Positions 12,405-51,815 of a stretch of DNA of 64,000 bases are shown in pieces. The notes beneath the pieces were generated by a model that was not told where the DNA came from, did no database searches, and worked only from the letters and a program-made list of their open reading frames with translations. The stretch is from an uncultured Gammaproteobacteria bacterium. GTDB lineage: Bacteria; Pseudomonadota; Gammaproteobacteria; Pseudomonadales; Halieaceae. Location of the stretch: NCBI GenBank assembly GCA_963762235.1, contig CAVXKH010000006.1, positions 17,699 to 81,698 of the forward strand. Reading direction: 5' to 3'. Position numbers and translations under genes: made by a program. Position 1 is the stretch's first letter. Every line of letters begins with the position of its first letter.

Positions 12405-13349
12405 GTGAAATGTTTAGTCAGCGGTGCTACCGGATTCCTCGGTCGCCAGCTATGCCAGCAACTTTTAGCTCGCGGTGACACGGTCATTGCACTGAGCAAA
12501 AACGGCGCGCCACTGGTCAGTGGGGAGCCAACGGTGGCAATGGATCTGGCTGTAAATGATCCCGCTGGCGAGTTATTGCAGGGAGTGGATGTGTTTTTTC
12601 ACCTGGCCGGTATCGCGCACCGACAGGAGCGGGAGTTGGCTTACGAAGAGTTGAATTATCGGGCGACGTTGCGTCTTGCGCGGCTGGCATCGGCCGCCGG
12701 AATCGGTTGTTTCATTTTTCTTAGCAGTGTAAAGGCCATGGGCCCACCCACTTCCGCTGCTGTGCGTTCAGAAAGCGCGGGTGCGCGGCCCCTCGATGCT
12801 TACGGCTTGTCCAAGTGGCAGGCAGAAAGAGCACTGCAGGAGCAGTTTTGTGACGACCCGATGTCAGTCGTGATTGTGCGCCCCGCGCTGGTTTACGGGG
12901 CGAATGTTAAAGGTAATCTGCAGAGACTGGCTAGCGCTGTGCGCCTGGGCTTGCCCAGGCCACCGGAGGGCGGCAGTCGTTCCATGATTGCGCTTGAGGA
13001 TCTGGTCGAACTGCTGTGTGTCATAGCGCGGCGCCGGCCGCCGCCGGGTGTGCATACCTGGATAGCCTGTGGCAGCGAGCGTTATAGCACGCAAGCTATT
13101 TACGACCTGTTGCGCGAGGCCAGTGGCAAGGGCAGGGGGGTTGGCTGGCTGCCGCGTTGGGTTTGGCGAGCGGGGGTCCACCTTCTGGATATGGCCTCCG
13201 GTCGCCGTGACGAGTCTACCTACGACAAGTTGTTTGGTACTGAGCTTTACAGCAATGCGGCGGTATTGCGGGACATGGATTGGCGGCCCCGCATCAGGTT
13301 GGAAGATGTGATCGGAAAAATTGCCGGGGTTGGGAGCACTGATTCGTGA
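12405..13349 (+). CDS. NAD-dependent sugar epimerase/dehydratase (extended SDR)
   Basis: GTG start. N-terminal VSGATGFLGRQL Rossmann motif and catalytic YGLSKWQAE (YxxxK). Overlaps the next gene by 4 nt. Confidence 0.75.
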   Translation: MKCLVSGATGFLGRQLCQQLLARGDTVIALSKNGAPLVSGEPTVAMDLAVNDPAGELLQGVDVFFHLAGIAHRQERELAYEELNYRATLRLARLASAAGIGCFIFLSSVKAMGPPTSAAVRSESAGARPLDAYGLSKWQAERALQEQFCDDPMSVVIVRPALVYGANVKGNLQRLASAVRLGLPRPPEGGSRSMIALEDLVELLCVIARRRPPPGVHTWIACGSERYSTQAIYDLLREASGKGRGVGWLPRWVWRAGVHLLDMASGRRDESTYDKLFGTELYSNAAVLRDMDWRPRIRLEDVIGKIAGVGSTDS

Positions 13350-14332
13350 CGGCAGTGCTGGCCACCCTCGTACTTTCGGTACTAATGTGCGGTCTCTATC
13401 TGCGGTTTGCCCGGGCCCGGCGCTATCTCGATTTGCCCAACGAGCGCAGTTCGCACGCGCAACCGACTCCCACTGGCGGAGGGTTTGCACTGATCTCGGC
13501 ATTGCTGTTGGGCCTGCTGGTGTCAGCATGGCTTTATGGTGCGTGGGATGCATCATTCCTTACGCTGGCTGTTGCTGCCCTGATTCTGATGGTAGTGGGC
13601 GTGATCGATGATCTGCAGGGTTTGTCGGTGCAACTGCGCATGGTGCTGTACAGCGTGGTTTGCCTGCTGGCTGCTACCGCGCTATTGCACGCTGTGGATG
13701 CAGAAAATTTCTTGTCTGGCGGGGCACTGGTACTGCTCGCGGCGCTTGGCCTGCTGTGGACTCTTAATCTGTATAACTTTATGGATGGTATTGACGGCAT
13801 CGCCGCGCTGCAGACGGTGCTCGTATGCAGCGGCGCGGCGTTGCTGTCCTGGGCAACCGGGCACGGTGCTCACTATGCGCTCTTCTGCCTGCTGCTCGCG
13901 GCCGCGCACGGCGGCTTTCTGGTGTGGAATTATCCACCTGCGCGATTATTTATGGGCGATGCCGGCAGCGTCCCCACTGGTTTTTTACTGGCTGCACTGG
14001 CGCTTGTCGGGGCGTTGCAGGGGCTACTCAACCCCCTCAGCTGGTTTGTGTTATTGGCCGTTTTTATCACTGACTCGACCTGGACGTTGCTGTGGCGAAT
14101 GGGCTCAGGGCAGGCCTTTGCACAGCCCCACCGGCTGCATGCCTACCAACGTTTGAGCCGACATTGGGGCTCGCACTTAAAGATGGATATAGCGTTAGTG
14201 GTCATAAACACACTGTGGCTGTTTCCACTTGCCTCGGCGGTGCAAATATGGCCCGAGCACAGCCTATTTCTGGTAATTTTGGCATACCTTCCCCTGTTAT
14301 ACACAATGGCGAAAATTGGTAGATTGGCGTAG
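13346..14332 (+). CDS. Polyprenyl-phosphate N-acetylhexosamine-1-phosphate transferase (MraY/WecA/WbpL family, initiating glycosyltransferase)
   Basis: 328-aa polytopic membrane protein with NLYNFMDGIDGIA and FMGDAGS motifs of the MraY/WecA/WbpL family. Confidence 0.8.
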   Translation: MTAVLATLVLSVLMCGLYLRFARARRYLDLPNERSSHAQPTPTGGGFALISALLLGLLVSAWLYGAWDASFLTLAVAALILMVVGVIDDLQGLSVQLRMVLYSVVCLLAATALLHAVDAENFLSGGALVLLAALGLLWTLNLYNFMDGIDGIAALQTVLVCSGAALLSWATGHGAHYALFCLLLAAAHGGFLVWNYPPARLFMGDAGSVPTGFLLAALALVGALQGLLNPLSWFVLLAVFITDSTWTLLWRMGSGQAFAQPHRLHAYQRLSRHWGSHLKMDIALVVINTLWLFPLASAVQIWPEHSLFLVILAYLPLLYTMAKIGRLA

Positions 14333-14428
14333 ACTTCGGACAGCTTGGGTGCGCTTGAACCGCCATGTTTTGTGCCCGTCATAGCGTTGAGAACAGGAGG
14401 GGACTTGTTGAATCGCCCGGGCAACTTC

Positions 14429-16420
14429 ATGACGCGTTCAGTTGTCGGCTTCTTCGGGAGCTTTCGGGATATCCTCCAAAAAGTGGTAGAACTCCCTCGC
14501 AATATCAAGCAGGCCTGCCTGCTATCGCTTGATATGGTGTATGTTGCTGCCGCCATGTGGTCCGCGGTGGCCCTACGCTATGGACATTTCAATTTCTATC
14601 TGGGCCCCGTGGAGTTCGCCTGTGGCGCGGTGACCATTTTCGTCAGCGCGGTAGTGTTCCTGCGTCTGGGATTATATCGGGCGGTTATCCGGTTCATGGG
14701 GCAGCAGGCTATCTGGGCCATCATAAAGGCTGCTGGTTACTCTACGCTTATCCTTGGGGCCACGGTCTTTCTGGCCCGCGCGGAAGTGCCGCGATCTACA
14801 CCTTTCATCTACTGGGTGTTACTCCTCGTGGGTATCGGGGGCACGAGACTGGTAGTGCGAGCATACTACCAGTCCAAGTTACGTGCCCAGTCCGAGAACG
14901 TGATTATCTACGGTGCGGGACAGTCAGGCCGGCAACTGCTGCACGCCCTGCACCACGTGGAGCAGTATCATCCGGTGGTGTTTGTCGATGATGATCGCTA
15001 CCTGCAGCGCTCGGTGATCAATGGTCTGCAGGTCGCGCGACCGGAAGACATAGAGCAGTTGATCGTCCAGCATGATATCACTCAAGTGTTGCTGGCTATC
15101 CCCTCGGCCTCACCAGAGCGCCGCAAGGAAATCATCAATTCCCTCGTCGGTCTGCCCGTCTATGTGCGAACAGTACCTACGATCAATGAATTGCTGGCCG
15201 GGAAGGCCAGTGTCAACCAGATACGGGATATTGATCTGGACGAGCTGCTCGGCAGGGAGCCCGTGCCGCCGCACCCCGAGTTGATCGAGCGCTGTATCAC
15301 GGACAAGGTCGTGATGGTGACCGGTGCCGGAGGATCCATCGGCGCAGAATTGTGTCGTCAGATTATACGTTCGGGTCCGCAGGAATTGATCTTATTGGAT
15401 AATTCCGAGTATGCCCTGTACAGCATCGAGCGAGAGTTGCGCGAAACCATGGATAGCCTTGGTCTACAGGTGGAACTGATAGCCCTGCTGGGCTCGGTAC
15501 AGGATCAGCATCGTCTGGAGAGTATTTACCGCACCTTCGAAGTGCGTACAGTCTATCATGCTGCGGCTTATAAGCATGTGCCGCTGGTGGAGTACAACAT
15601 TGCCGAGGGTGTCGCCAATAATGTCTTTGGCACTTGGTATGCGGCAGAGGCGGCGCGCAAAGCGGGGGTTGAGACCTTTGTGCTGGTGTCTACCGACAAG
15701 GCGGTGCGTCCCACCAATATCATGGGAGCCTCCAAGCGCCTGGCGGAAATGATATTGCAAGGCCTGGCTCAGCAGAATACATCCACTCGATTTTGCATGG
15801 TGCGATTTGGTAATGTTCTTGGTTCTTCCGGATCGGTGGTGCCACTGTTTCGGCAACAGATCAAGGACGGTGGCCCCGTGACGGTGACACACCCGGATGT
15901 GTCGCGGTATTTCATGAGCATCCCTGAGGCAGCGCAATTGGTACTGCAGGCGGGGGCGATGGGTACTGGTGGGGATGTATTCGTACTGGACATGGGTGAG
16001 CCGGTGCGCATTGTGGATCTGGCGAAGCGCATGATCAGACTCAGTGGTTACGAAATGAGTCATGACACCCACGTGGGTGAGCACATTGATATCGAGTTTA
16101 TCGGACTGCGCCCCGGAGAAAAGCTGCACGAGGAGTTGCTGCTCGGAACCAGGGTGGCCGGGACGGGGCACCCCATGATCATGCGTGCCGAAGAGGAGAG
16201 TTTACCCTTTATCCAGATACAGCGACTGCTTGCAAAATTGAGACGCTACTGCGACACGCTCGACTGCGTTGGTATCAGTGCAGTATTGAGTTCCGCCGTG
16301 AGCGGTTTCAGTGACCATCAGGTCCGCTACGACCACCTGTGGAAAAGGCAGGGCAAAGCTATTGCCTTAGAAGCCACTGCAGTTTCTAACGTGAAGGAAT
16401 TGTTCCCCGATAATTCGTGA
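14429..16420 (+). CDS. wbpM: Membrane-anchored nucleotide-sugar 4,6-dehydratase (WbpM/CapD/PglF type)
   Basis: Four N-terminal TM helices. Two Rossmann motifs are present (IIYGAGQSGRQL; VMVTGAGGSIGAEL) plus YHAAAYKHVPLVE. The ATG at 14429 gives ~663 aa; the ORF track starts at TTG 14345. Confidence 0.85.
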   Translation: MTRSVVGFFGSFRDILQKVVELPRNIKQACLLSLDMVYVAAAMWSAVALRYGHFNFYLGPVEFACGAVTIFVSAVVFLRLGLYRAVIRFMGQQAIWAIIKAAGYSTLILGATVFLARAEVPRSTPFIYWVLLLVGIGGTRLVVRAYYQSKLRAQSENVIIYGAGQSGRQLLHALHHVEQYHPVVFVDDDRYLQRSVINGLQVARPEDIEQLIVQHDITQVLLAIPSASPERRKEIINSLVGLPVYVRTVPTINELLAGKASVNQIRDIDLDELLGREPVPPHPELIERCITDKVVMVTGAGGSIGAELCRQIIRSGPQELILLDNSEYALYSIERELRETMDSLGLQVELIALLGSVQDQHRLESIYRTFEVRTVYHAAAYKHVPLVEYNIAEGVANNVFGTWYAAEAARKAGVETFVLVSTDKAVRPTNIMGASKRLAEMILQGLAQQNTSTRFCMVRFGNVLGSSGSVVPLFRQQIKDGGPVTVTHPDVSRYFMSIPEAAQLVLQAGAMGTGGDVFVLDMGEPVRIVDLAKRMIRLSGYEMSHDTHVGEHIDIEFIGLRPGEKLHEELLLGTRVAGTGHPMIMRAEEESLPFIQIQRLLAKLRRYCDTLDCVGISAVLSSAVSGFSDHQVRYDHLWKRQGKAIALEATAVSNVKELFPDNS

Positions 16421-16939: not shown

Positions 16940-19222
16940 TCAGGATACCCTGGTTGGCGACCTGTTCGGTTGGTGGCCATTTTCCCGCATCCACATTCTC
17001 ACGCTGGCCAGTGATTTGAGTTTGCCCTTCCTGATCGCCCGATCAACATTTTCGTTCACGAATCTAGTGATGGCTGCAGTAATTTGGCGGGCCATATCAT
17101 TGGCCTCATTAGAGGTTGCCATGATCATCAGGTGTGGATTAAGGGGGTCCAGCGGCAATTCTTCCTGTCTTCGCTTCAGCTTGATATAGCGAACCGTGGT
17201 CTGCAGGTCTCCTTCCCCGGACACTCCTTCCTTCTTCTTTCTATGCGCAAGCAGGTAGTCATATTCCTCCTCGTGTCGCCTCGCCGACACGAGGAAATCA
17301 TCCTCATGGACAATGCTCAAAAACGGAATGTCGTATGCCACAATGATATCCAGCGCTTTGAGGTGGCGCCGCTGGTATTCAATAGGATTGTGCATGGCCG
17401 CATTGATTTCCTTGCACATGCCGTAAAAGGAGGCCGTCTTGAGCAAGCGGTTGCCGACCAGGCGCAGAACGTAGGGGCTATTGGTATTTAACATCTTCTG
17501 TTGCACGGTTTTATTGTTCAGCAGCGAGCGAATCAGAAGATTCATGCTGCCAACCAGGGGCTCTGCAAGGCGTGTATCGAGAAAACGGTCCAGTAAGGAC
17601 AGGCTGTCTCGCTCGCTGACAGTCGCGGGTTCTGTAGTAATCAGGTGATCATCCTGTTGCTGGTAGACCCGCTCAAAACCGGAGTAATCCAGTTCTGTTT
17701 TTGAACGATAGTGGGAGATCACGGCCTTGATGTTCTCCCTCGTATGCAGGCCGTCCGCAGGGGCCCAGGCGGCAAGGTGGATCATGCCGCTGGCGCGCAG
17801 GGCGTCAACCAGCTTGCGATCCTTCCCCTGCAGTTTGGCATAGGGCGTGATGGGAGCTTCATAGTTCTGCAGAAGGGACAATAGCAGGTGGTCTGATATC
17901 ACGCCGGCGATGGAGTGTCCCGCGATAGGAGTGGGGCGGCCCTGATCCCATATCTCCAGAATCACCTGCCGCAACACCCGGGCATAGTGAGGAAATATTT
18001 CATCGTTCTCCAGAGTTTTTGCGTGGCTGCCGCGGTGCAGCGCGGACACGGTCCACGCGCTGGGCAAGCGCACCAGAAAATTGGTGAAACTGAAAAGGCC
18101 CATAAATCCATGAAGTAGCAGGATGTGGGGACCCTTGGATTCCTCTCCTGCACGCGTTTCCGCCTTGTTGTAAAGAGTCTTCCCGTGTTCCACGTATTTG
18201 AACTGTGTCTCCTCGAAATGCAGGGATTGTTCGTCTGCGAAGAGGTAGACCTTCTGTGCGATTTCGTAGCTTTCGCGCAACATACGCAGCGGAGTTTCCA
18301 TCACGGTTTGTTCAAAATCGAGCGACTCCTGCATCTCGAAGCGACCCAGCGCACGCAGTTTCAGGTTGCCAGATACGAGTAGCGACACACAGTGGGCGTT
18401 GGTCAATACCCCGCGGTTGAGGGCTACACGCAAGGCCTTCGGCCCGCGCTTGAGAACTATGACTCCGGGTTCCTTGATCAGCAGCTCACGCATATAGGGC
18501 GCGAAGGCTCCCAGAGTGCCATTCTTGCCGATACCGCTGACAATATAGTGAAACTCCATGCTGGCACCCAGTTTGTTGCGGATGTCCTTTTCATAGCGTT
18601 TCGCTTCTGTGTTCGCACGCTTCAGGGCCAGTGGGCGATTGTTGGCATCCAGCGCCTGTTTCACCTGCGCCAGGTTGATAGGATTCACCACAGTAGTAAT
18701 CATCCTGTCGATGATATCGTTCTCGTCCGCGTGGCTTCCGAGCTGCAGCTTTTCCGCAATAGCCCGTGATCCCCGGGCCTTGATCAGCTTGCGCGTCAGC
18801 GGCAGGATGAAATTCGTGATCAGGGATTGTTCGGGGCTTTCCCAGCCAGCTTCACCTGAGGATTCTTCGAGAAAGAAGAAACGCACATGACTAACCCAGT
18901 CAATATTGGCGTACAGATCCTCCACCATCGCCTGATACTGGGCCTTCACTGTGTTTCCCCCGCCCACAGCTACAGTAAAGTATTCGCGCTTGTAGTGTCC
19001 CCACGCAGAGAAGCGATCCTGTTCCCTCCAGTTCCGGTATTTATCTTCCATGATACTGGCGGCATGGCGCGCGGCTGCTGGCAGGTCGGCGGAGATGCCG
19101 ACGTGGATGCCGGCTTCCTCCTGTATCAGTACTGAAGGCCTGGCCTTTGGTTCAAGCCCAAGCCCGCGGCGCGCCTTTCTTGTCGCAGACTGAATCTGGT
19201 GCTTGAAATCCAATCGCTCCAT
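16940..19222 (-). CDS. Fusion protein: N-terminal 6-phosphogluconolactonase/NagB-fold domain (catalytic residues replaced) plus C-terminal alpha/beta-hydrolase domain
   Basis: Intact 760-aa ORF. N-terminal half: FTVAVGGGNT, DWVSHVRFFFLEESSG, HYIVSGIGKNGTLGAFAP, SLLVSGNLKLRAL (6PGL/NagB order). C-terminal half: HILLLHGFMG (oxyanion HG), IAGHSIAG (GxSxG), VHEDDF and NPHLMIM (candidate Asp and His). Confidence 0.6.
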   Translation of the reverse strand: MERLDFKHQIQSATRKARRGLGLEPKARPSVLIQEEAGIHVGISADLPAAARHAASIMEDKYRNWREQDRFSAWGHYKREYFTVAVGGGNTVKAQYQAMVEDLYANIDWVSHVRFFFLEESSGEAGWESPEQSLITNFILPLTRKLIKARGSRAIAEKLQLGSHADENDIIDRMITTVVNPINLAQVKQALDANNRPLALKRANTEAKRYEKDIRNKLGASMEFHYIVSGIGKNGTLGAFAPYMRELLIKEPGVIVLKRGPKALRVALNRGVLTNAHCVSLLVSGNLKLRALGRFEMQESLDFEQTVMETPLRMLRESYEIAQKVYLFADEQSLHFEETQFKYVEHGKTLYNKAETRAGEESKGPHILLLHGFMGLFSFTNFLVRLPSAWTVSALHRGSHAKTLENDEIFPHYARVLRQVILEIWDQGRPTPIAGHSIAGVISDHLLLSLLQNYEAPITPYAKLQGKDRKLVDALRASGMIHLAAWAPADGLHTRENIKAVISHYRSKTELDYSGFERVYQQQDDHLITTEPATVSERDSLSLLDRFLDTRLAEPLVGSMNLLIRSLLNNKTVQQKMLNTNSPYVLRLVGNRLLKTASFYGMCKEINAAMHNPIEYQRRHLKALDIIVAYDIPFLSIVHEDDFLVSARRHEEEYDYLLAHRKKKEGVSGEGDLQTTVRYIKLKRRQEELPLDPLNPHLMIMATSNEANDMARQITAAITRFVNENVDRAIRKGKLKSLASVRMWMRENGHQPNRSPTRVS

Positions 19223-19484: not shown

Positions 19485-20700
19485 TTAAGGTCCTGAGCAG
19501 ACCACAGGGTCCATCGCATTGATCCAGTCGCGAATCAACTGGACGCCCTCGGTGTGGATTACACTGCGACCGATCTCGGGCATACGCACCTGGGTCTCTT
19601 TTGAGTCCATACGGAAGTCCATGATAGATGCCGCCGCATCTCCGGGCACGATATCGTAGTCAAGATCACCTGCGCCAGGTCCGGCAGCGACAGGTGGTTT
19701 ACATTTGCCCACTTCGGTACTGAACTCGCGCCAATACTCCAGGTACAAGCCTGAGGTATTAGCGGCGCCAGTGACAGGTTGGTGGCAGTGGGCACAGTTG
19801 ACGTCCAGGTACCCCCTGGCGCGTTTGTCCAGATCGGCACTGGTGTCTCCCCATTGGGGAATGGTGTCGATGGAGTCAGTGTCACTCGGCGCGCCAGCGA
19901 GTATGCCTAGCTCGGTCCAGTGATCGAGCTGATTGGCGGTGCCGCTTTCGTAGTCATAGTCCTTATTGAGCGAGCGCGCCTTGGGTCCTATGGGGATCAG
20001 TTCGTCCTCGCCGTGGCAATTGGCGCAGTTGTTTGTATTGGGAATCACGTAATCTGTGGACTGTGAGACACCATTGCATCAACCCAGCTCACATTTTGAG
20101 TGCCACCGGCTACAGTCAGGACAGCTTCGGATTTGTCGGCATTCCAGATATAGGGTAGGGCTTTCCAGCCTTCCTTGCGATGGATCAACACGCGCGTCTC
20201 AATGATCTCCTCGGCGCTGTCAGCCAGGCGCTGATCGGCCTGTATGGCGAAGGTCTTGGCGATGATGGTGCCCACCGGGAAATCGAACACGTCCCGCTCA
20301 CGATACGCGGCTTTCGTCCCTGCAGGGACGAACACGAAGCGATACTTGTTAGCATAGTCGGTGAACAGCGGTGTGTTGAGGTCGTAAATAACGCCACCAC
20401 TGTTAGGCTTGGTGCGCGGATCAGCGGGATCGGCAAACAGGCGGTAGTTCGATAGATTGGGGCAGTCAGCCACATACGCTGCTGTATTAACGCCGGTTCC
20501 CGCAGCATCACACAGAGCTTGCTGTATCGATGGGTGGATTATCGGGGTTATTCGGGTCTACCGGAGGTTCCAGCACAATTGGCGGGAGCGAGGCGTGGCG
20601 GCAGTTAAAGTACTGCGGATCGGTGGAAATTTCAGGATCGTAGGGTCAGACCGCCCAGAATGACCGAGATGTTGAATCGGCCGAGACTGGTTTCAGCGCC
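19485..20700 (-). pseudogene. Diheme c-type cytochrome of the 'SO_2930 family' type (partner of the upstream beta-helix protein), broken by at least 3 frame changes (~20060, ~20525, ~20640)
   Basis: The C-terminal piece (19485-20048) has two CxxCH motifs (CANCHGE, CAHCHQ). The middle piece (20045-20473) reads ...ADCPNLSNYRLFADPADPRTKPNSGGVIYDLNTPLFTDYANKYRFVFVP.... Further upstream, DPQYFNCRHASLPPIVLEPPVDPNNP reads only in other frames. The exact N-terminus is unresolved. Confidence 0.6.
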
Positions 20701-20701
20701 A

Positions 20702-21898
20702 TTATCCACGACGCAAATTGCCTGGCTTGTCACTTAAGCCATCGGGAAATTCGACAAGCAATCCAGCATCCGTGCCGACACCGGAGCTATCATAGAAGAT
20801 GTCGGAGTTCTCGCCCACAATCGCTCCGATGAGCTTGGCATCGCCCTTTGGATCCAGGGCATTGTCTACAAGGATATTGTCGTGAACGTAGATTTTCTCG
20901 GGTACCGGATCGTAGGTGGGTTTGCTGATATCCAGGTCGACGAAGTAGTAGGCAACGATTAGAACTCCCAGAGAGATATTACCCTTGATATTGTTGCCAA
21001 ATGCCTCGATATCATCGTTGGCCATAATCATGAGGCCGGTACCCGTTGGTACCTGGCCGACAATATTACCTTTCGGTGCAAAGTTTGGCTCGTTGTTCTC
21101 GACAATCATATTGTTGAATACGCGTGTTGCCTCGCCGCCCTGCACGGGGGGGCCGGGCAAATCAAATACCAGGATGCCACCGGTATTGCCGGTAGTATTG
21201 TTTTCGTATACATCGGCAAATTTGGAATTTTCAATTTCGATACCGGCGACATTCTCGTGAACATAGTTGCGGCGCACGATGATGTTCTGGGATTGGCCAA
21301 CGTAAACGCCGGCATCGCTGGCGCCCCGCACCTCGCTGTCTTCAATGAGCACATTTCGCGTTCCCACCGGGTACAATCCGTAGGACCCATTGTTTTCATC
21401 CGGGCCGTTGGTCCACTCCACGCGTACACGGCGAATGGTAACGCCGTTTGAGTCCTTTATCTTTATCGCATCGCCGGGCGAGTTTTCCACCGCGAGGTCT
21501 TCCACCACAAAGTTGTTACCGGTTGCCAGAATACTCTGGCTGCCCGTGGTCTGGTTGCCGAAGCGCAATACCGTGCCGGCTTCTGCATCCATACCCTGGC
21601 CACGCAATACGATGTTATCGACACTGACGCTCAATTCGCCGGCAAAGTCATAAGTACCAGCCGGTAATTCGATAATGGTCTTGGGCTTGGCGTTAATCAG
21701 GGCCTCCTGAGTCCTGGTCTCCAGATTGTCCCCGGTTTCGAGAGTAATGACGGTATAGCCGGGATATTCAGGGTCTGCCAGGTCGTCGGCGATGCTTAAA
21801 TTGTTGTTGCTGCCACCGGAGCAGGCCCACAGAAGGGAGAGGCCAAACACGAGTGTCAGGAGCTTTAGCCAGGTATTATTAGAGTAGGTGTTGGGCAT
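20702..21898 (-). CDS. Parallel beta-helix repeat lipoprotein
   Basis: ATG 21898 with a GGAGA SD. Lipobox LSLLWAC|SGG. Repeated right-handed beta-helix turns (NIVLRGQG, VVEDLAVENSPGDAIKI, VTIRRVRV, VLIEDSEVRGASDAGVYVG, IIVRRNYVHENVAGIEIENS...). Confidence 0.7.
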   Translation of the reverse strand: MPNTYSNNTWLKLLTLVFGLSLLWACSGGSNNNLSIADDLADPEYPGYTVITLETGDNLETRTQEALINAKPKTIIELPAGTYDFAGELSVSVDNIVLRGQGMDAEAGTVLRFGNQTTGSQSILATGNNFVVEDLAVENSPGDAIKIKDSNGVTIRRVRVEWTNGPDENNGSYGLYPVGTRNVLIEDSEVRGASDAGVYVGQSQNIIVRRNYVHENVAGIEIENSKFADVYENNTTGNTGGILVFDLPGPPVQGGEATRVFNNMIVENNEPNFAPKGNIVGQVPTGTGLMIMANDDIEAFGNNIKGNISLGVLIVAYYFVDLDISKPTYDPVPEKIYVHDNILVDNALDPKGDAKLIGAIVGENSDIFYDSSGVGTDAGLLVEFPDGLSDKPGNLRRG

Positions 21899-22067
21899 GA
21901 TTTCTCCGGACAAGGACGATCATATAAGTACAAAAAGCGGAGTATAGCAATTTCATTGGCGCGGGCCAGCATATTTCCCTTGGAGCGCCGGCTCAGCTTA
22001 TCCATGGTTTGGACCTGCGACCCCTGTAGGGGTTCTGCCATAATTACGGTTCAGAGCTCCACAGTTA

Positions 22068-25000
22068 CTATTTGCCCGCGTGCGCTGACAGGAGTCGACA
22101 TCGTGCCCGGAAGTTTTCCAGCAAACTGTCAATTCGGCCGAGCGAGCCCAGACGCTCAAGCAGTATGGCCTCAGCGTCCTCGTACAATTTCATGTCCCAA
22201 TGATTTTTTTCACGAAACTCTACGGTCAGGTCCGGTCCGAGTTCAGCAAACACGGCCTCTACGCGCTGCTCCAGGCTTCCCTCCCGGCCGGGAGTTTCGT
22301 TCTGGCGAATATATGACAGATCGATATTGGGAAAATATTGCCGAAGATAATGCTCCATGAGAAGCATGCTCTCGTCGTAGCGCTCCACGATAATGAGCAG
22401 CGGTATTCTGGTCAGCAGTGCGACACTCTCCAAATACTGCTGTTCGCCGATCGCGCTGTCAAAATTGCTGGTGCAAAAGCTGCAGTGGAAGTTGCGAATG
22501 GTGGGACCCACTTCTGGCTGCATGCGCCATCGGACATAGTCGGCAAACGACAGTCTTTTCGCCTGGATGGCCCCGGGTGTATCGGCCTCCTGGCGATGCT
22601 CAAAATCATAGACGGATCGCGCCCTGTCGATTGGATGCCGCAGCGCGATAATCGGCAAGAGTTGAAAATTCTCAGAGACTGGAAGCGGGAACCGCACATG
22701 ATGACTGGAGATAGCTGCTAGCCTTGCGTGATTTTCGATATACGGCCCCAGGAATGGCGCGCCCAGGCGCATGCTGTCATCATCGCGGTGATCGATGAAG
22801 CCATCGCCAAACTGCCGACTCAGGCTCCAGTCCAGGGTGCTGCCGGCATTTTTGAACAGATGGCAATGCACGATAACCGGTCTGGACCCGCTATCCCGTG
22901 AACGCCTTTGGGAAGGATTTTCCCCAAGTACTTTCTCGAGTGCAGCGCGAATCGTAGCGGTGCTGAATTGCTCCCTGATCACCTGTCGGCTGTTGGTGGA
23001 TAGTTTCTGCCACAGGAATTTATCCGTATATAATTCGATGACCTTGCCCGCAAATTCCGTCTCACTGTCAGAAATCAGCGCATTGTGCCCATCTGTCAGT
23101 TGCATGCCCTCCGCGCCGATGCTGCTAGTCACCACCGGTAAGCCGTAGGAGAAGCTCTGCCCGATCTTTCCCTTGATGCCTGCGCCATGTAGCAGGGGGG
23201 AGACAAAAACCCTGCTGTCGTTGAAATAGCCGGATACATCCTCCACGTACCCGGTCACGGTAATGGATGCAGATTCCATCGCTTTGATGCGTTCAGTCGG
23301 ATCACTGCCTACTATCGTCAGGTGGATGTCCGGAATCTTCCTGCGAATAAGGGGAAGAATGAACTCTATGAACCAGATAATACCCTCTTCATTGGGTGGG
23401 TGGGCGAAGCCGCCGATGAACATCAGGCCATGTCTGTCCTCAAAGCCCTTAACGCACGGCTCCAGGGAATGGATATTGGAAACCACAGCAACCTTGTCGG
23501 CAAATTTCTCGGTGGCGAGAATTTCCTTCTCGGCGGGGCTGACAACAAAAGTGGTATCCGTTTCCTCGGCCAGGAAAAACTCGAGATTCTTCCACTGTTG
23601 CACCTCAAGCTCCAGGCGACGCTGTTCACGGACAAAATGCAGATCCACAGTGTCAAAAATGGTATGGGCGTTGGAGTACTTTTTCACCAGGTGTAGATAT
23701 TTCTTGGCTGTAGCCGGCCGGGACATAAGAATAACGTCGAGATCATTGCCGCGCTCAATGATAAAGTCCTCGAAATTTATCTCTCCATAATAGGTTTCAA
23801 TACCAAGGTCCTGTAGTGTCTTCGTGTATCTGGGATCATAGGTGAGATCATCCGGCCAGAATGAGACTTTGTATTTCATGTCCTGCAATATCTGCAGCAT
23901 ATTAAGCATACGCAACGAGCCGGAATCGCGGTCAAACGTTGGAACATAGTGATCTATGATAAGAATATGTTTGTCGCCATTTCTCTCCCTGGCCCTGACA
24001 AGGCCGTCCGAGCTTGGTACATGGTTTTGCGCGAGCACCTCCTGCCACTTTTCGACAAATTTGTGGCGATTGACTTCCTGATAGCGCTTGAAGCCGGAGC
24101 TGGTGTCCTTGCCCGCTGAAGCGCCGCCGTAGTGAATAACTCGCGCGGCGGGCTGGAACACAACCTTATAGTTTTTTGCACGAACAGCAAAGCACAGGTC
24201 GGTGTCCTCGTAATAGGCGGGTGCGTAGCGCTGATCAAAGCCTCCGACATCGTCCCACAGTTTGCGCGTAAGCATCAGGCAGGCGCCGGAGCAATAGTCG
24301 ACCGCTCTTTGATAGGAATATTGTGGCAGATCGGGATTGTCACCGTGGCCGTAATTACAGCCGGTTCCGTCACGCCAGATGATGCCCCCGGCTTCCTGTA
24401 GAGATCCGTCCGGATAAATCAGTTTGGCGCCGACGATGCCAGTGCTGGCGTCGGCGAACGGCGCCAACATGGCGTCAAGCCAGCCCGGCGTTACTTCTGT
24501 ATCGTTGTTCAAAAAAAGCAGGTAGCTACCTTTAGCATTTACTGCAGCTTGATTGCACGCGTTGACGAAAACTTCGTTGGTATCATTGGTGATTACGCAA
24601 ATACCCTGCATGGATTCCAGCAGCCGGGGCGTCAGGTCGGTTGAATGATTGTCGACTACTATGATCTCGTAGCTGGCCTGGGTGTGCGCATAAACCGACT
24701 GCAGGCACTTAAGGGTAAACTGCCAGTTGTTAAAAACCGGAATAATAATACTGACAACGGGATGTTCCGGCTGCGGGAAGGATAGGGGTTCCCAGGGCCA
24801 CGCATTTTGTGGGTGGTCCGATGCCTGCATCGAGGTCTGGTCAATCGATGTCTCGACTGCGGTGCCAGAGTGTTCAATTGGTTCAATTGGTTCAATGACT
24901 TCTGCTACCTGATGCTTCGGTGTGCCAACGTCGGCCCCCAGCATGGCGTACACCTGGCGTTTGCATTGCTGGAGCAGCGCTCGCCGCCGGGTACCTTCTG

Positions 25001-26279
25001 GCAGTAATTTTTCGATGGTCTCCTGGTACTTCTTGTAGACTCTCCATGGCGGACTCCCGACAAATTGCGCGAAATCATCATCGAGTTGTTTGATTCTGGC
25101 GTCCCTCAGACCGATTTGAGTTTCCCTGAGACTGATTTGTGATTCCAGTTCCGTGATATGAAAATCCAGCTCCTCAATGCGAAATTCCCGCTCCCTGATG
25201 CGCGCTTGCAGTAAGGGAACCTCCTTGGTGCGCACGCTGTAGAGATATTCCGTATTGGCAATATACCGATATTCCCTGAAAATATTGTCGGTCTCAAACT
25301 GCCTCTGAATTCGCTTTAGCTCGGTTGTATACCAGGAAGGTTTGCTCCGATTTTCACTCAGTGCCCTGGATATGCGTACATCCCGGTTATAGAAAAGCGT
25401 CTGACCTTCCTCGAACTCGCGGTATAGCTTGTCCATGGATTCCACATCTTCCGGGGTCGCAATATCCTGCTCAGAGACCTTGCACAGCAGTCGATAGTAG
25501 TCCGCAATAACTTTGGCGCATTGCCTATCAATTTCCTGGTCTGAAATCTCGTGATGGCGCATATTTCGATCGAGAAACTGCGACAACTCCTCGGCCCGTT
25601 CGTCTGAGAAAATCGGCAGATCCAGCCCTGCGCTGCGAAATACCCGCTCCATGCTCTGTTCTGGATTGCGCAGGAGGGATTCAAATTTCACGAAGCCTCG
25701 CGGCAGATGTCTGGTATTGCGTTCCGCATCCAACATGTGTTGCATCCACAAGAGAAGCGACTTCTCGATTGCAAAGCCATTCCGGCGTGCGAGAGAATGC
25801 GCGATTTCCAGTGGATTACGAATGACCAGAGCAAAGTGCGGGGTGATATGTTCAGCAGAAAATAGTGGCAGCCACAACGGTAGCAGCTTGGCAAGTCTGG
25901 GGTCCTTCAGCGCAGATAGCTGATTTTCAGCAATATCGGTGCGCAGGAAGTGACGGATATCCTCGAGAAGCTGACTCTCTGCAAACCTGTCCAACCAGTT
26001 CTCCGGCAGTGGAAAGGTATCGTCCCAGGATGTATTTAGTGTTTCGAGAATGCAGTCGTTGGCCAGCACGACATACTTGTTTTCAAAAAATCCCTTGGGG
26101 TTGTCAGGTTGGGTCTCGAGCATCCTTGTGCCGAGGTTTACACCTAGAAGGTCGAGAATGCCGGTAAAAGCGGACGTGCCGCTGCGATGCATTCCCAAAA
26201 CGACAAGACAATTCTTCATAGATTCAGTGTGAGGAGTTTCAGGTACTTTTTTAATGTGTAATGCCCCGTCACAACCCAA
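22068..26279 (-). CDS. 1403-aa multidomain protein: sulfotransferase / coiled coil / GT2 glycosyltransferase / GT4 (GT-B) glycosyltransferase / second sulfotransferase
   Basis: Intact ORF. ST1: VVLGMHRSGTSAF (5'-PSB) and VIRNPLEIAHSL (3'-PB). Coiled coil: ~LLQARIREREFRIEELDFHITELESQISLRETQIGLRDARIKQLDDD. GT2: VSIIIPVFNN...IIVVDNHSTD...LFLNNDTEV...YYEDTDLCF. GT4: LMFIGGFAHPPNEEG...GAGIKGKIGQSFSYGLPVVTSSIGAEGM. ST2: VIVHCHLFKNAGSTLD and ALRHPIDRARSVY. The start is TTG 26279 or ATG 26219. Confidence 0.7.
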   Translation of the reverse strand: MGCDGALHIKKVPETPHTESMKNCLVVLGMHRSGTSAFTGILDLLGVNLGTRMLETQPDNPKGFFENKYVVLANDCILETLNTSWDDTFPLPENWLDRFAESQLLEDIRHFLRTDIAENQLSALKDPRLAKLLPLWLPLFSAEHITPHFALVIRNPLEIAHSLARRNGFAIEKSLLLWMQHMLDAERNTRHLPRGFVKFESLLRNPEQSMERVFRSAGLDLPIFSDERAEELSQFLDRNMRHHEISDQEIDRQCAKVIADYYRLLCKVSEQDIATPEDVESMDKLYREFEEGQTLFYNRDVRISRALSENRSKPSWYTTELKRIQRQFETDNIFREYRYIANTEYLYSVRTKEVPLLQARIREREFRIEELDFHITELESQISLRETQIGLRDARIKQLDDDFAQFVGSPPWRVYKKYQETIEKLLPEGTRRRALLQQCKRQVYAMLGADVGTPKHQVAEVIEPIEPIEHSGTAVETSIDQTSMQASDHPQNAWPWEPLSFPQPEHPVVSIIIPVFNNWQFTLKCLQSVYAHTQASYEIIVVDNHSTDLTPRLLESMQGICVITNDTNEVFVNACNQAAVNAKGSYLLFLNNDTEVTPGWLDAMLAPFADASTGIVGAKLIYPDGSLQEAGGIIWRDGTGCNYGHGDNPDLPQYSYQRAVDYCSGACLMLTRKLWDDVGGFDQRYAPAYYEDTDLCFAVRAKNYKVVFQPAARVIHYGGASAGKDTSSGFKRYQEVNRHKFVEKWQEVLAQNHVPSSDGLVRARERNGDKHILIIDHYVPTFDRDSGSLRMLNMLQILQDMKYKVSFWPDDLTYDPRYTKTLQDLGIETYYGEINFEDFIIERGNDLDVILMSRPATAKKYLHLVKKYSNAHTIFDTVDLHFVREQRRLELEVQQWKNLEFFLAEETDTTFVVSPAEKEILATEKFADKVAVVSNIHSLEPCVKGFEDRHGLMFIGGFAHPPNEEGIIWFIEFILPLIRRKIPDIHLTIVGSDPTERIKAMESASITVTGYVEDVSGYFNDSRVFVSPLLHGAGIKGKIGQSFSYGLPVVTSSIGAEGMQLTDGHNALISDSETEFAGKVIELYTDKFLWQKLSTNSRQVIREQFSTATIRAALEKVLGENPSQRRSRDSGSRPVIVHCHLFKNAGSTLDWSLSRQFGDGFIDHRDDDSMRLGAPFLGPYIENHARLAAISSHHVRFPLPVSENFQLLPIIALRHPIDRARSVYDFEHRQEADTPGAIQAKRLSFADYVRWRMQPEVGPTIRNFHCSFCTSNFDSAIGEQQYLESVALLTRIPLLIIVERYDESMLLMEHYLRQYFPNIDLSYIRQNETPGREGSLEQRVEAVFAELGPDLTVEFREKNHWDMKLYEDAEAILLERLGSLGRIDSLLENFRARCRLLSAHAGK
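24873..24897. repeat. In-frame 9-bp tandem repeat (TTCAATTGG x ~2.8) inside the megaprotein linker
   Basis: ttcaattgg ttcaattgg ttcaatg on the plus strand. It encodes IEPIEPIEH between the coiled coil and the GT2 domain. Confidence 0.8.
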
Positions 26280-26887: not shown

Positions 26888-29238
26888 TTATGCTTCAGAG
26901 GACGATGTCAATTCGGCCATCAGCGCCATTCGTTGCAGTTGGGTCATGAAATGCCAGGGTACCACCAGCAGCTCTTGCAATTCTGCGGCAGGCAGCGGTT
27001 TACTGAACAGATAACCGCGCATGATAGTTAACGCCATTGGCGGCCAGAAATCGGTACTGTCCTGCTGTTTCCACACCCTCTGCCACGATATGTAGATTCA
27101 GGCTTTTGGCCATAGCGATGATCGCTTTCAGCAGCCTGGCGGCATCTTTGCGCGTGTCGCAGTCAAGCACAAAGCTGCGATCGATTTTAATTTCATCCAG
27201 GGGGTGGCGACCCAGGTAGCTGATGGGTGCATGATTCGTCCCGAAATTCTCCAGAGACAGGTAGACGCCAGTTTCCTTGAGTTCCTGCAGGAATTTGAGG
27301 ATGTCGCTATCGTTATCCATCAGTATTACCTCTGACAAGCCCAGTTCCAGCATCGACGGCGACAGGTTGGCAGCGAGTAATACCTCTCTTAGGCGGGTTA
27401 CGAACGCGGGTTTGAATTGCTGGGGTGAAATATTTATGGCTATTCTGGGCAGTTCCAGGCCTTGATCTCTAAACGCTTTCATTTGGCGACAGACTTCGAC
27501 CAATACCCAGTCGCCGAGCTCCCATATCAGCCCTATTTTTTCTGCCAGAGGAATGAATCGGGCAGGCGATACTCGACCGAATGTGGGGTTTTCCCACCGC
27601 AGTAGTGCTTCAGCGCAAATAATAGAGCCGTTGGTGGTGTCAACCTGGGGTTGGTAGTGCAAAGTGAGTTCATTTCGATCAATGGCCCTGCGTAGTTCCG
27701 ACTCGATTTTGAGGTCATCCTGGTCTGCGGCCTGCATATCCTCTCTATAGAAAAGAAAATTACTGTCGCCGGTCGATTTGGCTTCATGCATTGCTGTGCT
27801 GGCCGATCTGAGCAGTCCCTCCGCATCCATACCATTGCGAGGTGCAATTGCTATACCAATACTCGAATTCACCACTAACTCATGGCCATTAATGGTCACG
27901 GGCTCAACGAGCCTGTCAATTATGCGCTGGGCAACCAGTCCGGCAGCGTCGATGCTATCAAGCTGGCCGAGAACCACGGCGAATTCATCGCCTCCAAACC
28001 GGGCGACATTCAATTCCTCATTTGCATTCCGGTAATGCGCCAGTATGTCACTGCTACGCAGGCAACTTACCAGACGTTTACCCACTTCCTGTAGGAGCGA
28101 GTCGCCGGCACTGCGCCCCAGCGACTCGTTGATACGACTAAAATTGTCCAGATTGAGGAACAGCACTGCCAGCGGCTTTGCGTTACGAGCGCACACGCGC
28201 AGCAGTAGCTCGAGTTGTTCTATAAACAGCTGACGATTGGGTAGTGATGTCAGTAGGTCGTAGTTGGCCAGGCGATGCAGTGCTTCCCTGGTTGCGCTGA
28301 TCTCTTCGGTCGCTTTGCTTAGCTGCTGTTCTCGAATGGACAGCTGGGCTGCTCTTTCATCTGCCCTGAGTGTAAGCAGTTTGTGATCCAGTCCAGCTTC
28401 GTACTTTTTGTTGGCCGAACCGTCTATCATGGCATTGAATACACCTGGCAATAGCCTCAAACTCGTCTTCTTTCCTGAGCCGTAGCTTCCCTGGATTTTC
28501 TCCGGACAAGATTTCGTTGGCCAGTTGCTTTAGTTGTGTGAGCGAAGCTGTTGCGTGTCTGGTGATCAGATAGACTGGGATAGCGCTTAGTACGAGAAGT
28601 ATCAGGCTGCAAAAAAACCACCGGCTGGCTATGGGGCGCACATCCTGCAACAAAATGCCGCGGTCAATTGCCAGGTTTATGTAGCCTATGACCAGGAGGC
28701 TGCTATTTTTTGCGTCGGGTTCAATCAATGCTGGAACGAAATCCGATAACTCCAGGTCTTTGGCATTGGGATTGACCGGGGAAAAAACCGGCGTCGTCAG
28801 GAGTATTGTGGGATTGCTCGCTTTGAGCGATGACCAAAAGCCGGTGCCGGTCTTGTTGTGGGCACCGTCGAATGCGGTCAAACCGGTTTCTGTGACTGCA
28901 AACTCGGCCCTTGTGACCTCCAGTGACGGGATGTTCCGAGGGATTACACTGCTGAGGTCTGTCCTCGCTATTACGTCGCCAAGGCTGTTGTAGGCAACCG
29001 CGACCGAGACCGCACCGGATTCCAGAAAGTTACCCAGAAATTGGTGCAGGCGGGATTCATCATGACGATAGAAGTAAAGCTGTAAATCCGGACGGTTCGG
29101 CACTCGTGCCAGAGCCGTATCAACCACTTTGTCCAGAGCGACCTGATACTCTCGCTGGGCTATATATCCTGTAGCAATACAGCTGAGAAGGAGGCCCAGG
29201 AAAATGAAGACAGCTGTAACCTTTGTGGCGATAGTCAT
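26888..29238 (-). CDS. Membrane sensor with GGDEF (diguanylate cyclase) and EAL (phosphodiesterase) domains, with two +1 frame breaks (~28440 and ~27022)
   Basis: N-terminus is TM - ~170-aa periplasmic domain - TM - linker (ORF 28357-29238). GGDEF region: RFGGDEFAVVLG. EAL region: CAEALLRWENP...DEIKIDRSF (ORF 27000-28460). The C-terminal MRGYLFSKPLPAAEL reads in ORF 26888-27076. Confidence 0.85.
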
Positions 29239-40419: not shown

Positions 40420-40523
40420 CCGCTAATTGGGGATTCTATCAGTGTGTTGATTACGTGCTGCATTTCAGTGCTATGTAGATGATAATAAAAGGCTATTTTC
40501 GCCTCGTCCAGGTAGGGAAATTC

Positions 40524-42544
40524 GTGTCCAAGCGTTTCAAGGTTGAATCCCACTTCCAGCCCGCCGGCGACCAGCCGGAGGCCATCCGCCAGCTGGTGGA
40601 AGGAGCGCGGGCCGGTCTTGCTGCGCAGACCTTATTGGGGGTTACGGGATCAGGGAAAACGTTCACCATGGCACATGTGGTGGAGCAACTGCAGCGACCG
40701 ACCATCGTGATGGCGCACAACAAGACGCTGGCAGCGCAACTGTACGGTGAGTTCAAGGAGTTTTTCCCCAATAACGCTATCGAGTATTTCGTCTCCTACT
40801 ACGACTATTACCAGCCTGAGGCCTATGTTCCGTCCTCGGATACGTTTATCGAGAAGGACGCCTCTGTGAATGAGCACATCGAGCAGATGCGGCTCTCGGC
40901 CACCAAGGCCTTACTGGAGCGTAGCGATTGTCTCGTAGTGGCCACGGTCTCCGCCATTTACGGTCTGGGCGATCCCAAGTCGTATTTCAAAATGCTGATT
41001 CACCTGTCTCGTGGCGAGATTGTTGACCAGCGGGACATTCTGCGCCAGCTGGCGGAGCTGCAGTATACGCGCAACGACGTGGATTTTCGGCGCGGCACCT
41101 ACCGGGTACGCGGCGATGTGATCGATGTATTTCCCGCGGATTCAGAGCGCGATGCGGTGCGGATTGAATTGTATGATGAGGAAGTAGAGCAAATAAGCTG
41201 GTTCGATCCACTGACTGGCGCCGTCCAGAGCAAGGTGCCCCGGGTGACCATCTTCCCCAAGAGCCACTATGTGACGCCCCGGGAGGTCATGCTCGATGCA
41301 GTGGTACATATCGAGAAGGAACTGGGCGAACGACTCAAGCAGCTCCGGGAGAACGACAAGCTGGTGGAGGCGCAGCGTCTAGAGCAGCGTACCCGCTACG
41401 ATATGGAGATGATCCGTGAACTGGGTTACTGCACCGGTATTGAAAACTACTCGCGTTATCTGTCCGGTCGGGCGCCGGGAGAGCCGCCCCCTACGTTATT
41501 CGAATACCTGCCGGAGAATGCACTGGTGATTGTGGATGAGTCCCACGCCAGTATTCCCCAGATTGGCGCCATGTATAAGGGCGACCGCTCGCGCAAGGAG
41601 ACGCTGGTTGAATACGGCTTTCGCCTGCCTTCTGCCCTGGATAACCGCCCCCTGCGCTTTGAGGAGTGGGAGCAGCTGGTGCCACAGCTGGTTTTTGTCT
41701 CGGCCACGCCCGGACCCTATGAAGCGCAAAAGGCCGGACGCACGGTGGAGCAGGTGGTGCGTCCCACCGGTCTGGTGGATCCTGTGGTGGAGGTGCGACC
41801 GGCTACGAGCTCAGGTGGACGACCTGTTGGGCGAGATACGCATCGTGGTTGAACGCGGCGAGCGCGTGCTCGTCACCACCCTGACCAAACGCATGTCAGA
41901 AGATCTTACAGAATATCTGGGCGAGCACGGCGTGCGCGTGCGCTACCTGCACTCGGATATAGAGACTGTGGAACGGGTGGAGATTATTCGCGATCTGCGC
42001 CTGGGCGTGTTCGACGTCCTGGTGGGTATCAACCTGTTGCGCGAGGGACTGGATATGCCCGAGGTGTCGCTGGTTGCGATCCTGGATGCTGACAAGGAGG
42101 GATTTCTGCGCTCCGAACGTTCCCTGATCCAGACCATGGGCCGCGCGGCCCGTCACCTGCATGGCAGGGCGATCCTCTATGCGGACAGGGTGACCGGCTC
42201 CATGGAGCGCGCCATGGCGGAAACCGACCGCCGTCGGGACAGGCAGATTGCCCATAATACACTCCACAACATTACACCCGTCGGCGTCGAAAAATCGGTG
42301 CAGGACATCATGGAAGGTGCCCGGCGCATGCCGACCAGAGGCAAGGACAAGGCCAGAAAGGTGGCGGAATCGCAGGGCCGCATACAGTGCCGAAGTTGCC
42401 AACCTGGCACCCGCTGCGCTGTCGCGCAAACTCAAGCAACTGGAAGCGCAGATGCATGAGCATGCAAAAAACCTCGAATTTGAACAAGCGGCAGCCCTGC
42501 GAGATCAACTGGCGGAAATCAGGCAACTGGCCTTTCTCAGCTAG
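40524..42544 (+). CDS. uvrB: Excinuclease ABC subunit B, with two +1 frame breaks (~41811 and ~42375)
   Basis: [23 protein letters not shown], Walker [13 protein letters not shown], ...VEVRPAT|[28 protein letters not shown], and the C-terminal UVR motif [19 protein letters not shown] in a third frame. GTG 40524 is the preferred start. Confidence 0.93.
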
Positions 42545-51772: not shown

Positions 51773-51815
51773 CTTATGTTGTCCCTTGAGGGTAATTCGT
51801 TCACTGGATTTGGCC

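Follow-up and report, generated by a model that had tools for sequence, protein, structure and literature searches.

A single gene in a 64-kb stretch of DNA from an uncultured gammaproteobacterium of the family Halieaceae (the window, meaning the whole stretch of 64,000 nucleotides) encodes one polypeptide in which two sulfotransferases (STs) and two glycosyltransferases (GTs) are joined. From the N-terminus onwards, the product of this fusion gene comprises an ST (ST_N), a spacer with a coiled coil, a GT2 module, a GT4-like module of the GT-B kind and a second ST of another family (ST_C). The order of these modules, the gene neighborhoods of related proteins and the likeness to characterized systems suggest that the protein is probably a soluble cytoplasmic polymerase combined with a terminator or modifier, acting on a sulfated surface glycan exported by an ATP-binding cassette (ABC) transporter, in the class of WbbB, the O7 ORF6 protein and WbdD-WbdA.

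The open reading frame (ORF) is intact, as an earlier note on this DNA had claimed, and all the motifs quoted there are present in the order given. Nucleotide coordinates are positions in the window, and amino acid (aa) numbering follows the 1403-aa ORF from its TTG codon. The motifs are GMHRSGTS (aa 29-36) and IRNPLEIAHSL (aa 153-163) in the first ST; IIIPVFNN (aa 511-518), VVDNHSTD (aa 541-548), NNDTEV (aa 591-596) and YEDTDL (aa 690-695) in GT2; GGFAHPPNEEG (aa 956-966) and GIKGKIGQSFSYGLPVV (aa 1034-1050) in the GT4-like module; and HCHLFKNAGST (aa 1138-1148) and RHPIDRARSVY (aa 1214-1224) in the second ST. Pfam, family profiles and AlphaFold models together identify the five modules, and the binding and catalytic motifs are intact in all four enzymatic modules. 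Because the homologs align from Met21 onwards, the ATG at 26219 is the probable real start, which gives a protein of 1383 aa. No transmembrane (TM)-like segment is found in the protein (the maximum 19-residue Kyte-Doolittle hydropathy is 1.23), and it should therefore be soluble or peripheral; nor does it contain a membrane-embedded synthase domain. 3′-Phosphoadenosine 5′-phosphosulfate (PAPS) and nucleoside diphosphate sugars (NDP-sugars) are cytoplasmic, which together with the lack of TM segments places the protein in the cytoplasm. Such proteins are currently annotated only as “glycosyltransferase” or “GT2 family”, one of them as “putative mycofactocin MftF”, and both ST modules are unannotated in current records.

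ST_N is a PAPS-type ST of the Sulfotransfer_3 kind. When the domain is searched alone, PF13469 matches it with 29.3 bits, above the cut-off of 27; in the full-length scan it reaches only 23.1 bits, under the same cut-off. Its 5′-phosphosulfate-binding (5′-PSB) motif GMHRSGTS, the KDPR motif and its 3′-phosphate-binding (3′-PB) motif RNPLEIAHS can all be recognized, and GMHRSGTS, KDPR and the R-x-P…S pattern are invariant or nearly so in an alignment of 35 family members. The PSB is of the R-x-G type, as reported for NodH-like PF13469 enzymes (PMC11625862). In the AlphaFold2 (AF2) model of aa 21-500, the catalytic core has a predicted local distance difference test (pLDDT) score above 90, and the best Foldseek matches in the PDB are all PAPS STs, namely the olefin-synthase (OLS)/CurM ST, TPST2, Stf0 and StaL (probability 1.0). 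The isolated-domain score, the conserved motifs and the fold matches bear out the first ST module of the earlier note.

The second, different ST that the note had proposed is likewise borne out. ST_C itself has no direct Pfam match, even at E-values up to 10. Among 49 aligned relatives, 28 match PF03567 (Sulfotransfer_2), with a best E-value of 4.7e-08, and the two conserved motifs of the family profile align to the 5′-PSB and 3′-PB PAPS-binding motifs of the heparan sulfate (HS) 6-O- and 2-O-sulfotransferases HS6ST and HS2ST. In the fusion protein these are HLFKNAGST with K1143 and LRHPIDRARS with R1214 and S1222, and His1193 is a candidate catalytic residue; K1143, H1193, R1214 and S1222 are invariant across the 49 ST_C sequences. 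The AF2 model of ST_C is confident (pLDDT 95.3; predicted template modeling score (pTM) 0.91), and its top Foldseek matches are HS 2-O- and 6-O-sulfotransferases (4ndz, 3f5f and 5t03; probability 1.0, TM-score ~0.5). ST_C has 249 relatives, mostly stand-alone proteins of ~275 aa, several of which are named “sulfotransferase family 2” by NCBI. The profile, motif and fold evidence for ST_N and ST_C indicates that both modules are real and come from different ST families.

Both GT modules lie above their Pfam cut-offs, as expected from the earlier description. GT2 matches PF00535 at aa 510-667 with 93.4 bits (cut-off 23.3) and carries NND (DXD-like) at aa 591-593 and the ED.D of YEDTDL at aa 691-694, both nearly invariant in the family alignment; an NXD variant of the DXD motif is accepted in Klebsiella pneumoniae O7 ORF6 (PMC11231755). 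The GT4-like module matches PF13692 (Glyco_trans_1_4) at aa 951-1086 with 86.6 bits (cut-off 27) and PF00534 with 32.6 bits, and its N-terminal half shows a weak Glyco_transf_4 match. At the domain level, the protein would accordingly be described as holding two putative polymerising GT modules in tandem. Membership of TIGR03087 (stp1, the GT of the PEP-CTERM/XrtA system) was rejected, the score being 113 bits against a cut-off of 316.65 with only the C-terminal half aligned (aa 890-1118); membership of MftF was also rejected, its score being far under the cut-off.

The fusion is shared by many other genomes. A homolog search returned 583 proteins, the best 120 of which all have ST_N, spacer, GT2 and GT4 in this order; 64 of these 120 also have ST_C. 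The five-module order is therefore conserved, and its retention in ~64 homologs shows that the fusion is not a consensus error. Identity to these homologs is 41-81% in ST_N and 45-84% in ST_C, and the fusion protein is colinear with them over 98-99% of its length, in independent assemblies from different sources. The closest match is 78% identical, and the closest named sources are Halioglobus and Halieaceae metagenome-assembled genomes (MAGs). Five-module homologs come from Halieaceae, Desulfosediminicola and others, the protein of Desulfosediminicola ganghwensis being 47% identical. An exhaustive search with ST_N alone yielded 4,841 representative clusters at E≤1e-30, hundreds of which are fused to GT2-GT4. 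The domain is almost always N-terminal, and 33 of the best 150 representatives are at least 900 aa long; ST_N precedes the spacer in all of the best 120 homologs and in nearly all of the best 150 representatives. The ST_N-spacer-GT2-GT4 core was found across many phyla in a locus scan with one genome per species (37 loci).

The same modules also occur as separate genes or in other combinations. Granulosicoccaceae (locus L004) and one Halieaceae genome (L035) encode ST_C separately, in a gene that overlaps the end of an ST_N-GT2-GT4 gene. The gene order in Planctomycetota (L034 and L036) is GT2-GT4, ST_C, ST_N, wzm, wzt; ST_N is fused to ST_C beside a GT2-GT4 protein in Acetobacteraceae (L039), and an ST_C-type domain takes the N-terminal position in Acidimicrobiales (L038). 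These fusion and fission (Rosetta-stone) patterns are strong evidence that the ST_N, GT2, GT4-like and ST_C activities act in one pathway.

Two further arrangements were observed. Four Phenylobacterium loci (L011-L014, e.g., L013 9932-14224) have a stand-alone ST_N-type gene directly upstream of a 1065-aa protein with an unknown 460-aa N-terminal region, GT2 and a WbsX-type domain in place of GT4; wzm/wzt lie 4 kb downstream of this protein in L013, which makes it another variant of the same theme. In Nitrospirota-type MAGs (L015 4585-10302 and L017 7180-12795), proteins of 1871-1905 aa with a GT4-like segment follow ST_N-GT2 proteins of 841-953 aa, so that the polymerase modules appear to have been reallocated across two giant genes.

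The neighbors of the relatives point to export and to sulfate supply. Among 44 related loci, 11, from several phyla, have wzm/wzt next to the family member, 4 have PAPS-supply genes there and 3 have rml genes; these counts are minimum values, many of the loci being on contigs that end early. In Desulfosediminicola the order is wzm, wzt (with Wzt_C), an RgpF-type GT gene, a 288-aa gene and the five-module homolog. Cellvibrio sp. pealriver has rmlA, rmlC, rmlD, rmlB, wzm, wzt (413 aa), an adenosine 5′-phosphosulfate (APS) kinase gene, the family member and an acyltransferase gene. In GCA_036704275, wzm and wzt are interleaved with one GT4 and one GT2 gene; next come a dehydratase gene, cysD, cysNC and cysQ, and after these the family member and a further two ST genes. 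This adjacency of wzm/wzt, PAPS-supply and rml genes ties the family to a putative PAPS-dependent sulfation of a cytoplasmically polymerized, ABC-exported glycan, which may contain rhamnose at least in some cases.

Between ST_N and GT2, the AF2 model shows the 93-residue helix, then two short helices and a low-confidence segment. The earlier note had described a coiled coil of ~70 aa. A coiled coil is indeed present, with the quoted heptad stretch at aa 362-401, but clear heptads cover only ~45 aa inside the helix. L, I, V or M occupy 0.75-0.88 of the heptad a/d positions over aa 349-397; for the whole helix the occupancy is 0.48 vs 0.32 in shuffles (p ~0.0025). Since high occupancy is confined to about aa 349-397, the canonical coiled coil is short (~45 residues). 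Across the family, ST_N and GT2 lie 134 to 776 aa apart, and this distance correlates with the amount of heptad-like sequence (r = 0.88); if only the close five-module group is considered, the range is 134-535 aa. The heptad content of relatives ranges from none to more than 250 heptad-like residues, and the long Halioglobus forms (1527-1724 aa) have long heptad segments.

From these features a course of synthesis can be proposed, in which we infer the substrates, which ST caps and which decorates, the control of chain length and the export route. A lipid-linked primer would be assembled at the inner membrane, on its cytoplasmic face, probably by the adjacent WbpL/WbpM-type genes, the WbpL-type transferase being a plausible source of it. 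The GT2 and GT4-like modules would extend this primer by alternating transfers into a repeat-unit polymer, while ST_C, lying beside the polymerase, may sulfate the repeat units with PAPS. ST_N, held off the polymerase by the helical and coiled-coil spacer, would sulfate the non-reducing end, thereby stopping further growth of the chain and perhaps labeling it for export by a Wzm/Wzt transporter presumably encoded elsewhere in the genome. In position, ST_N matches known terminators, being N-terminal to a length-variable heptad spacer. We put forward only tentatively the specific proposal that terminal sulfation by ST_N is an uncharacterized capping chemistry, that the spacer (134-776 aa) sets chain length and that ST_C sulfates the body of the polymer.

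Several observations weigh against such a role. The Pfam score of ST_N is marginal. None of the partner genes that the earlier note had in mind (wzm/wzt, wzx/wzy or cysDNC) is present in the 64-kb window, nor are other cys genes or rml genes, and no wzm/wzt, cys or rml genes lie within 10 kb in the four related Halieaceae loci of the same type. No Wzm or Wzt is found in the syntenic loci L001, L002, L005, L006 and L007. Hidden Markov models (HMMs) built from eight Wzm and eight Wzt sequences detected no further transporters in the related loci or the window, and with the Wzt of L035 as query none was found on contigs carrying window-type genes among the best 120 of 6,080 matches. Only 3 of the 11 adjacent Wzt proteins are long enough for a cap-binding module, namely those of L003 (with Wzt_C), L043 (413 aa) and L035 (388 aa), the latter two having no Pfam Wzt_C match; the other 8 are only 224-283 aa. 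To our knowledge, no glycan structure, sulfated or other, is known for this organism. Furthermore, the role of a rigid ruler is doubtful in this particular protein, because its heptad segment is only ~45 aa long, with a disordered linker of ~50 aa behind it, and many of the closest relatives lack any heptad segment, which speaks against such a ruler in this clade. The proposal of a self-contained polymerase-plus-modifier for a sulfated glycan therefore stands in part: the architecture and the wzm/wzt, PAPS and rml context of relatives favor it, but a ruler in this protein and a foreign origin of the gene (see below) are weakened, and the window lacks the partner genes.

Some of these observations would be expected if both STs decorate internal positions of the repeat unit, e.g., in a sulfated rhamnan-like O-antigen or exopolysaccharide, without capping. 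The helix would then only oligomerize or scaffold the protein, and, as in K. pneumoniae O2a, coupling to export would determine chain length. Such an arrangement would agree with the short form of most adjacent Wzt proteins, which lack a cap-binding extension, with the frequent lack of a heptad segment among the closest relatives, with the disordered linker after the helix and with the additional stand-alone STs in some loci, which suggest multi-site sulfation. It accounts less well for the nearly constant placement of ST_N at the extreme N-terminus before a spacer that varies about six-fold through heptad-rich inserts, which is typical of terminators, and for the Wzt_C domain of the Desulfosediminicola transporter. 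We consider it somewhat unlikely, while taking it seriously.

It is improbable, in our estimate, that the same chemistry serves another product, i.e., a capsule-like polysaccharide or exopolysaccharide, or a glycan on protein or another lipid rather than the O-antigen of lipopolysaccharide (LPS), perhaps exported by something other than Wzm/Wzt. The lack of a transporter in the window and the syntenic loci would fit this, as would the occurrence of the family in Actinomycetota-type and Planctomycetota genomes, where a classical LPS O-antigen is unexpected, the GGDEF-EAL gene upstream in three window-type loci and the periplasmic beta-helix lipoprotein gene downstream in two. However, O-antigen initiation genes of the WbpL/WbpM type stand directly beside the locus in all window-type genomes, the beta-helix and GH94 neighbors are not conserved, and the fusion protein has no synthase domain embedded in the membrane. 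Finally, at least six other genes of the window are split by apparent frameshifts (uvrB, thrS, pheA and the P-type ATPase, GGDEF-EAL and beta-helix genes), which raises the question of whether the long ORF itself is an artifact of genes joined by assembly or consensus errors, or a decaying pseudogene. Its uninterrupted frame, its colinearity with independent homologs and its intact catalytic and binding motifs effectively refute this. The preferred reading remains that of a polymerase combined with a terminator or modifier.

The earlier note had regarded the gene as compositionally foreign, for which we find weak grounds. Its G+C content is 52.1% against a mean of 55.7% (standard deviation (sd) 2.7) for windows of equal size, 11.7% of which are as low or lower. 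The shift is 1.3 sd, and G+C at third codon positions (GC3) is 60.3%, within the range of the neighboring genes. Since neither G+C nor GC3 falls outside the native range and synteny of the locus extends across Halieaceae genomes, there is no support for a recent foreign origin, and a reading of horizontal transfer was rejected. A separate low-GC island of 46-48% G+C and GC3 ~51% was observed at 50438-53531 (+), shortly downstream of pheT. It encodes an Arylsulfotran_2 protein of 444 aa (arylsulfate sulfotransferase (ASST)-type, PAPS-independent) and a separate Sulfotransfer_3 protein of 363 aa, which adds to the sulfur-transfer chemistry of the window, and is a better candidate for foreign DNA than the fusion gene.

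Table 1. Positions of the fusion gene, its modules and neighboring genes in the window
Feature	Residues (aa)	Position	Strand	Basis or remark
Epimerase/reductase, WbpL/WecA-type polyprenol-phosphate N-acetylhexosamine (HexNAc)-1-P transferase and WbpM-type dehydratase genes		12405..16420	(+)	Pfam Epimerase, Glycos_transf_4, Polysacc_synt_2
760-aa soluble protein, partial Glucosamine_iso/6-phosphogluconolactonase-like match	197-298 (match)	16940..19222	(-)	Pfam
Whole fusion ORF, from TTG	1403 in all	22068..26279	(-)	Uninterrupted; stop codon 22068-22070
ST_C, Sulfotransfer_2 (HS2ST/HS6ST-like) kind	1127-1403	22071..22901	(-)	PF03567 in relatives, profile, AF2, Foldseek
GT-B/GT4-like module, GAGIKGKIGQS motif	770-1120	22920..23972	(-)	PF13692, PF00534, partial TIGR03087
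GT2 (GT-A) module	506-745	24045..24764	(-)	PF00535 93.4 bits, PF13641 50.9 bits
Pro/Glu-rich linker, probably disordered	450-500	24780..24932	(-)	AF2 pLDDT <50, model residues 430-480
Single long predicted helix, 93 residues, ~14 nm	315-407	25059..25337	(-)	AF2 secondary structure
Canonical heptad coiled-coil part	356-400	25080-25214	(-)	Heptad a/d occupancy
ST_N, Sulfotransfer_3-kind PAPS-type ST	21-300	25380..26219	(-)	PF13469, motifs, AF2, Foldseek

The order of the locus in Halieaceae is a GH94 protein gene, a GGDEF-EAL gene, the fusion gene, an optional beta-helix lipoprotein gene and the gene of a 760-aa soluble protein; wbpM-, wbpL- and epimerase-type genes come next, and beyond them lie pyrF, ihfB, rpsA, cmk and aroA (Table 1). 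This position resembles that of the ihfB–wbpM O-antigen locus of Pseudomonas aeruginosa. The epimerase, WbpL-type and WbpM-type genes also flank the fusion gene in L001, L005, L006 and L007, and genes of the WbpL/WbpM type adjoin the locus in all the window-type genomes examined. Five window-type loci extend to this point; in four of them (the window, L001, L006 and L007) the 760-aa protein is encoded between the fusion gene and wbpM, and L005 lacks it. The 760-aa protein has no TM segment, no signal peptide and no sequence relative in the PDB, and was rejected as an exporter on these grounds. A functional link to the GH94, GGDEF-EAL or beta-helix lipoprotein was rejected as unsupported, because these neighbors are not conserved across window-type loci. 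In a scan for promoters and terminators the counts were no higher than in shuffled sequence, and no terminator-like site was found on the minus strand between the fusion gene and the beta-helix gene.

Some features of the neighbors themselves were recorded. The GH94 gene at 32580-38060 (+) encodes an 1826-aa protein whose C-terminal 750 aa contain the GH94 supersandwich and catalytic domains and whose ~1070 N-terminal residues have no Pfam match; its ortholog in L006 is 81% identical. The GGDEF-EAL gene upstream of the fusion gene (27000-29238 (-)) is split into ORFs of 293 aa and 486 aa; L006 has its ortholog as one protein of 824 aa, with two TM-like segments in the N-terminal part. Downstream of the fusion gene, at 19485-21913 (-), the beta-helix (NosD-like) lipoprotein gene is broken into ORFs of 403 aa and 187 aa, which correspond to residues 28-391 and 617-802 of the 802-aa ortholog that is intact in L001; weak cytochrome-c-like CxxCH matches were seen in the C-terminal piece. 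Neither L006 nor L007 has this lipoprotein gene. Several housekeeping genes are also split into two overlapping ORFs or cut, including uvrB (40479-42459), thrS (42754-44686) and pheA (4478-5286); the P-type ATPase gene (29710-32008) is split, and only the C-terminal part of serC is present (3385-4323). The split and shortened genes suggest frequent assembly indel errors in the window, or else pseudogenes.

If terminal sulfation takes place, sulfate would join the known O-antigen caps (methyl, methyl-phosphate and 3-deoxy-D-manno-octulosonic acid (Kdo)). Proteins of this kind would then also be compact, self-contained tools with which defined sulfated glycans could be produced, either in vitro or in engineered hosts. 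If both capping and ruler hold, the family would represent a widespread bacterial one-protein machine for size-controlled sulfated polysaccharides. Halieaceae are abundant coastal bacteria (the OM60/NOR5-type group), and sulfated glycans on their surface could affect phage recognition, grazing and marine pools of sulfated glycans.

Few bacterial carbohydrate STs are characterized, and little is understood of how bacteria make sulfated polysaccharides (PMC11625862, PMC8205485). ST_N has the fold of Stf0, StaL, TPST and the CurM ST; ST_C resembles HS2ST/HS6ST both in fold and in its PAPS-binding motifs. When the two modules are structurally aligned with known STs, sequence identity is only 11-18%. 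HS2ST/HS6ST and NodH/Stf0-type enzymes are stand-alone or anchored in the Golgi membrane and are not fused to polymerising GTs, whereas ST_N and ST_C are. In Aeromonas salmonicida, whose O-antigen is not known to contain sulfate, a stand-alone gene with an ST domain lies between wzt and wbbB (PMC4483657). In a full-text literature search we found neither an ST terminator nor the present fusion described, a 2019 census of terminator chemistries in Glycobiology, which may already list candidates of the ST type, lying outside this search. Sulfate chemistry is so far undemonstrated for polymerase-plus-terminator proteins, and in the present case it is predicted from sequence and modeled structure.

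The class was described by Kelly et al. 2024 as having a coiled-coil protein with a terminator at its distal end, polymerising GTs in the same or a partner protein, and a Wzt carbohydrate-binding module (CBM) that admits only capped chains; all characterized systems place the terminator at that end of the coiled coil which is farther from the polymerase (PMC11231755). In WbdD/WbdA (Escherichia coli O9a and K. pneumoniae O3), a coiled coil likewise sets a small-group terminator apart from a membrane-proximal polymerase, and terminal modification stops extension (PMC3482155, PMC11231755). There the terminator and the polymerase reside in two proteins, the chemistry combines phosphorylation with methylation, and WbdD has a C-terminal membrane-binding region, none being identified in the fusion protein. 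WbbB (K. pneumoniae O12 and Raoultella terrigena) has an N-terminal terminator, a coiled-coil ruler and two C-terminal polymerising GTs (PMC11231755). Its terminator is a Kdo transferase (GT99) adding a sugar cap, in contrast to the ST of the fusion protein, its GTs are GT102 and GT103 rather than GT2 and GT4-like, the Wzt of its exporter carries a CBM for the cap, and its coiled coil is extended with a ruler function shown by experiment, whereas that of the fusion protein is short. K. pneumoniae O7 ORF6 (1414 aa) resembles the fusion protein in described architecture, not by sequence alignment, in having an N-terminal non-glycosyl terminator, a coiled coil and two C-terminal GTs (PMC11231755). 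Its terminator is a methyltransferase-kinase pair making a methyl-phosphate cap in place of an ST, both of its GTs are GT2 instead of GT2 plus GT4-like GT-B, and no modifying domain follows them where the fusion protein has ST_C; its gene is clustered with wzm/wzt of an ABC-transporter-dependent pathway, unlike the fusion gene in its window. The fusion protein matches these two proteins in module order and differs in four ways, namely its ST chemistry, the second ST after the GTs, the short coiled coil with a flexible linker and the lack of a transporter in cis. By analogy of architecture, O7 ORF6 and O12 WbbB appear to be its closest counterparts among the characterized systems.

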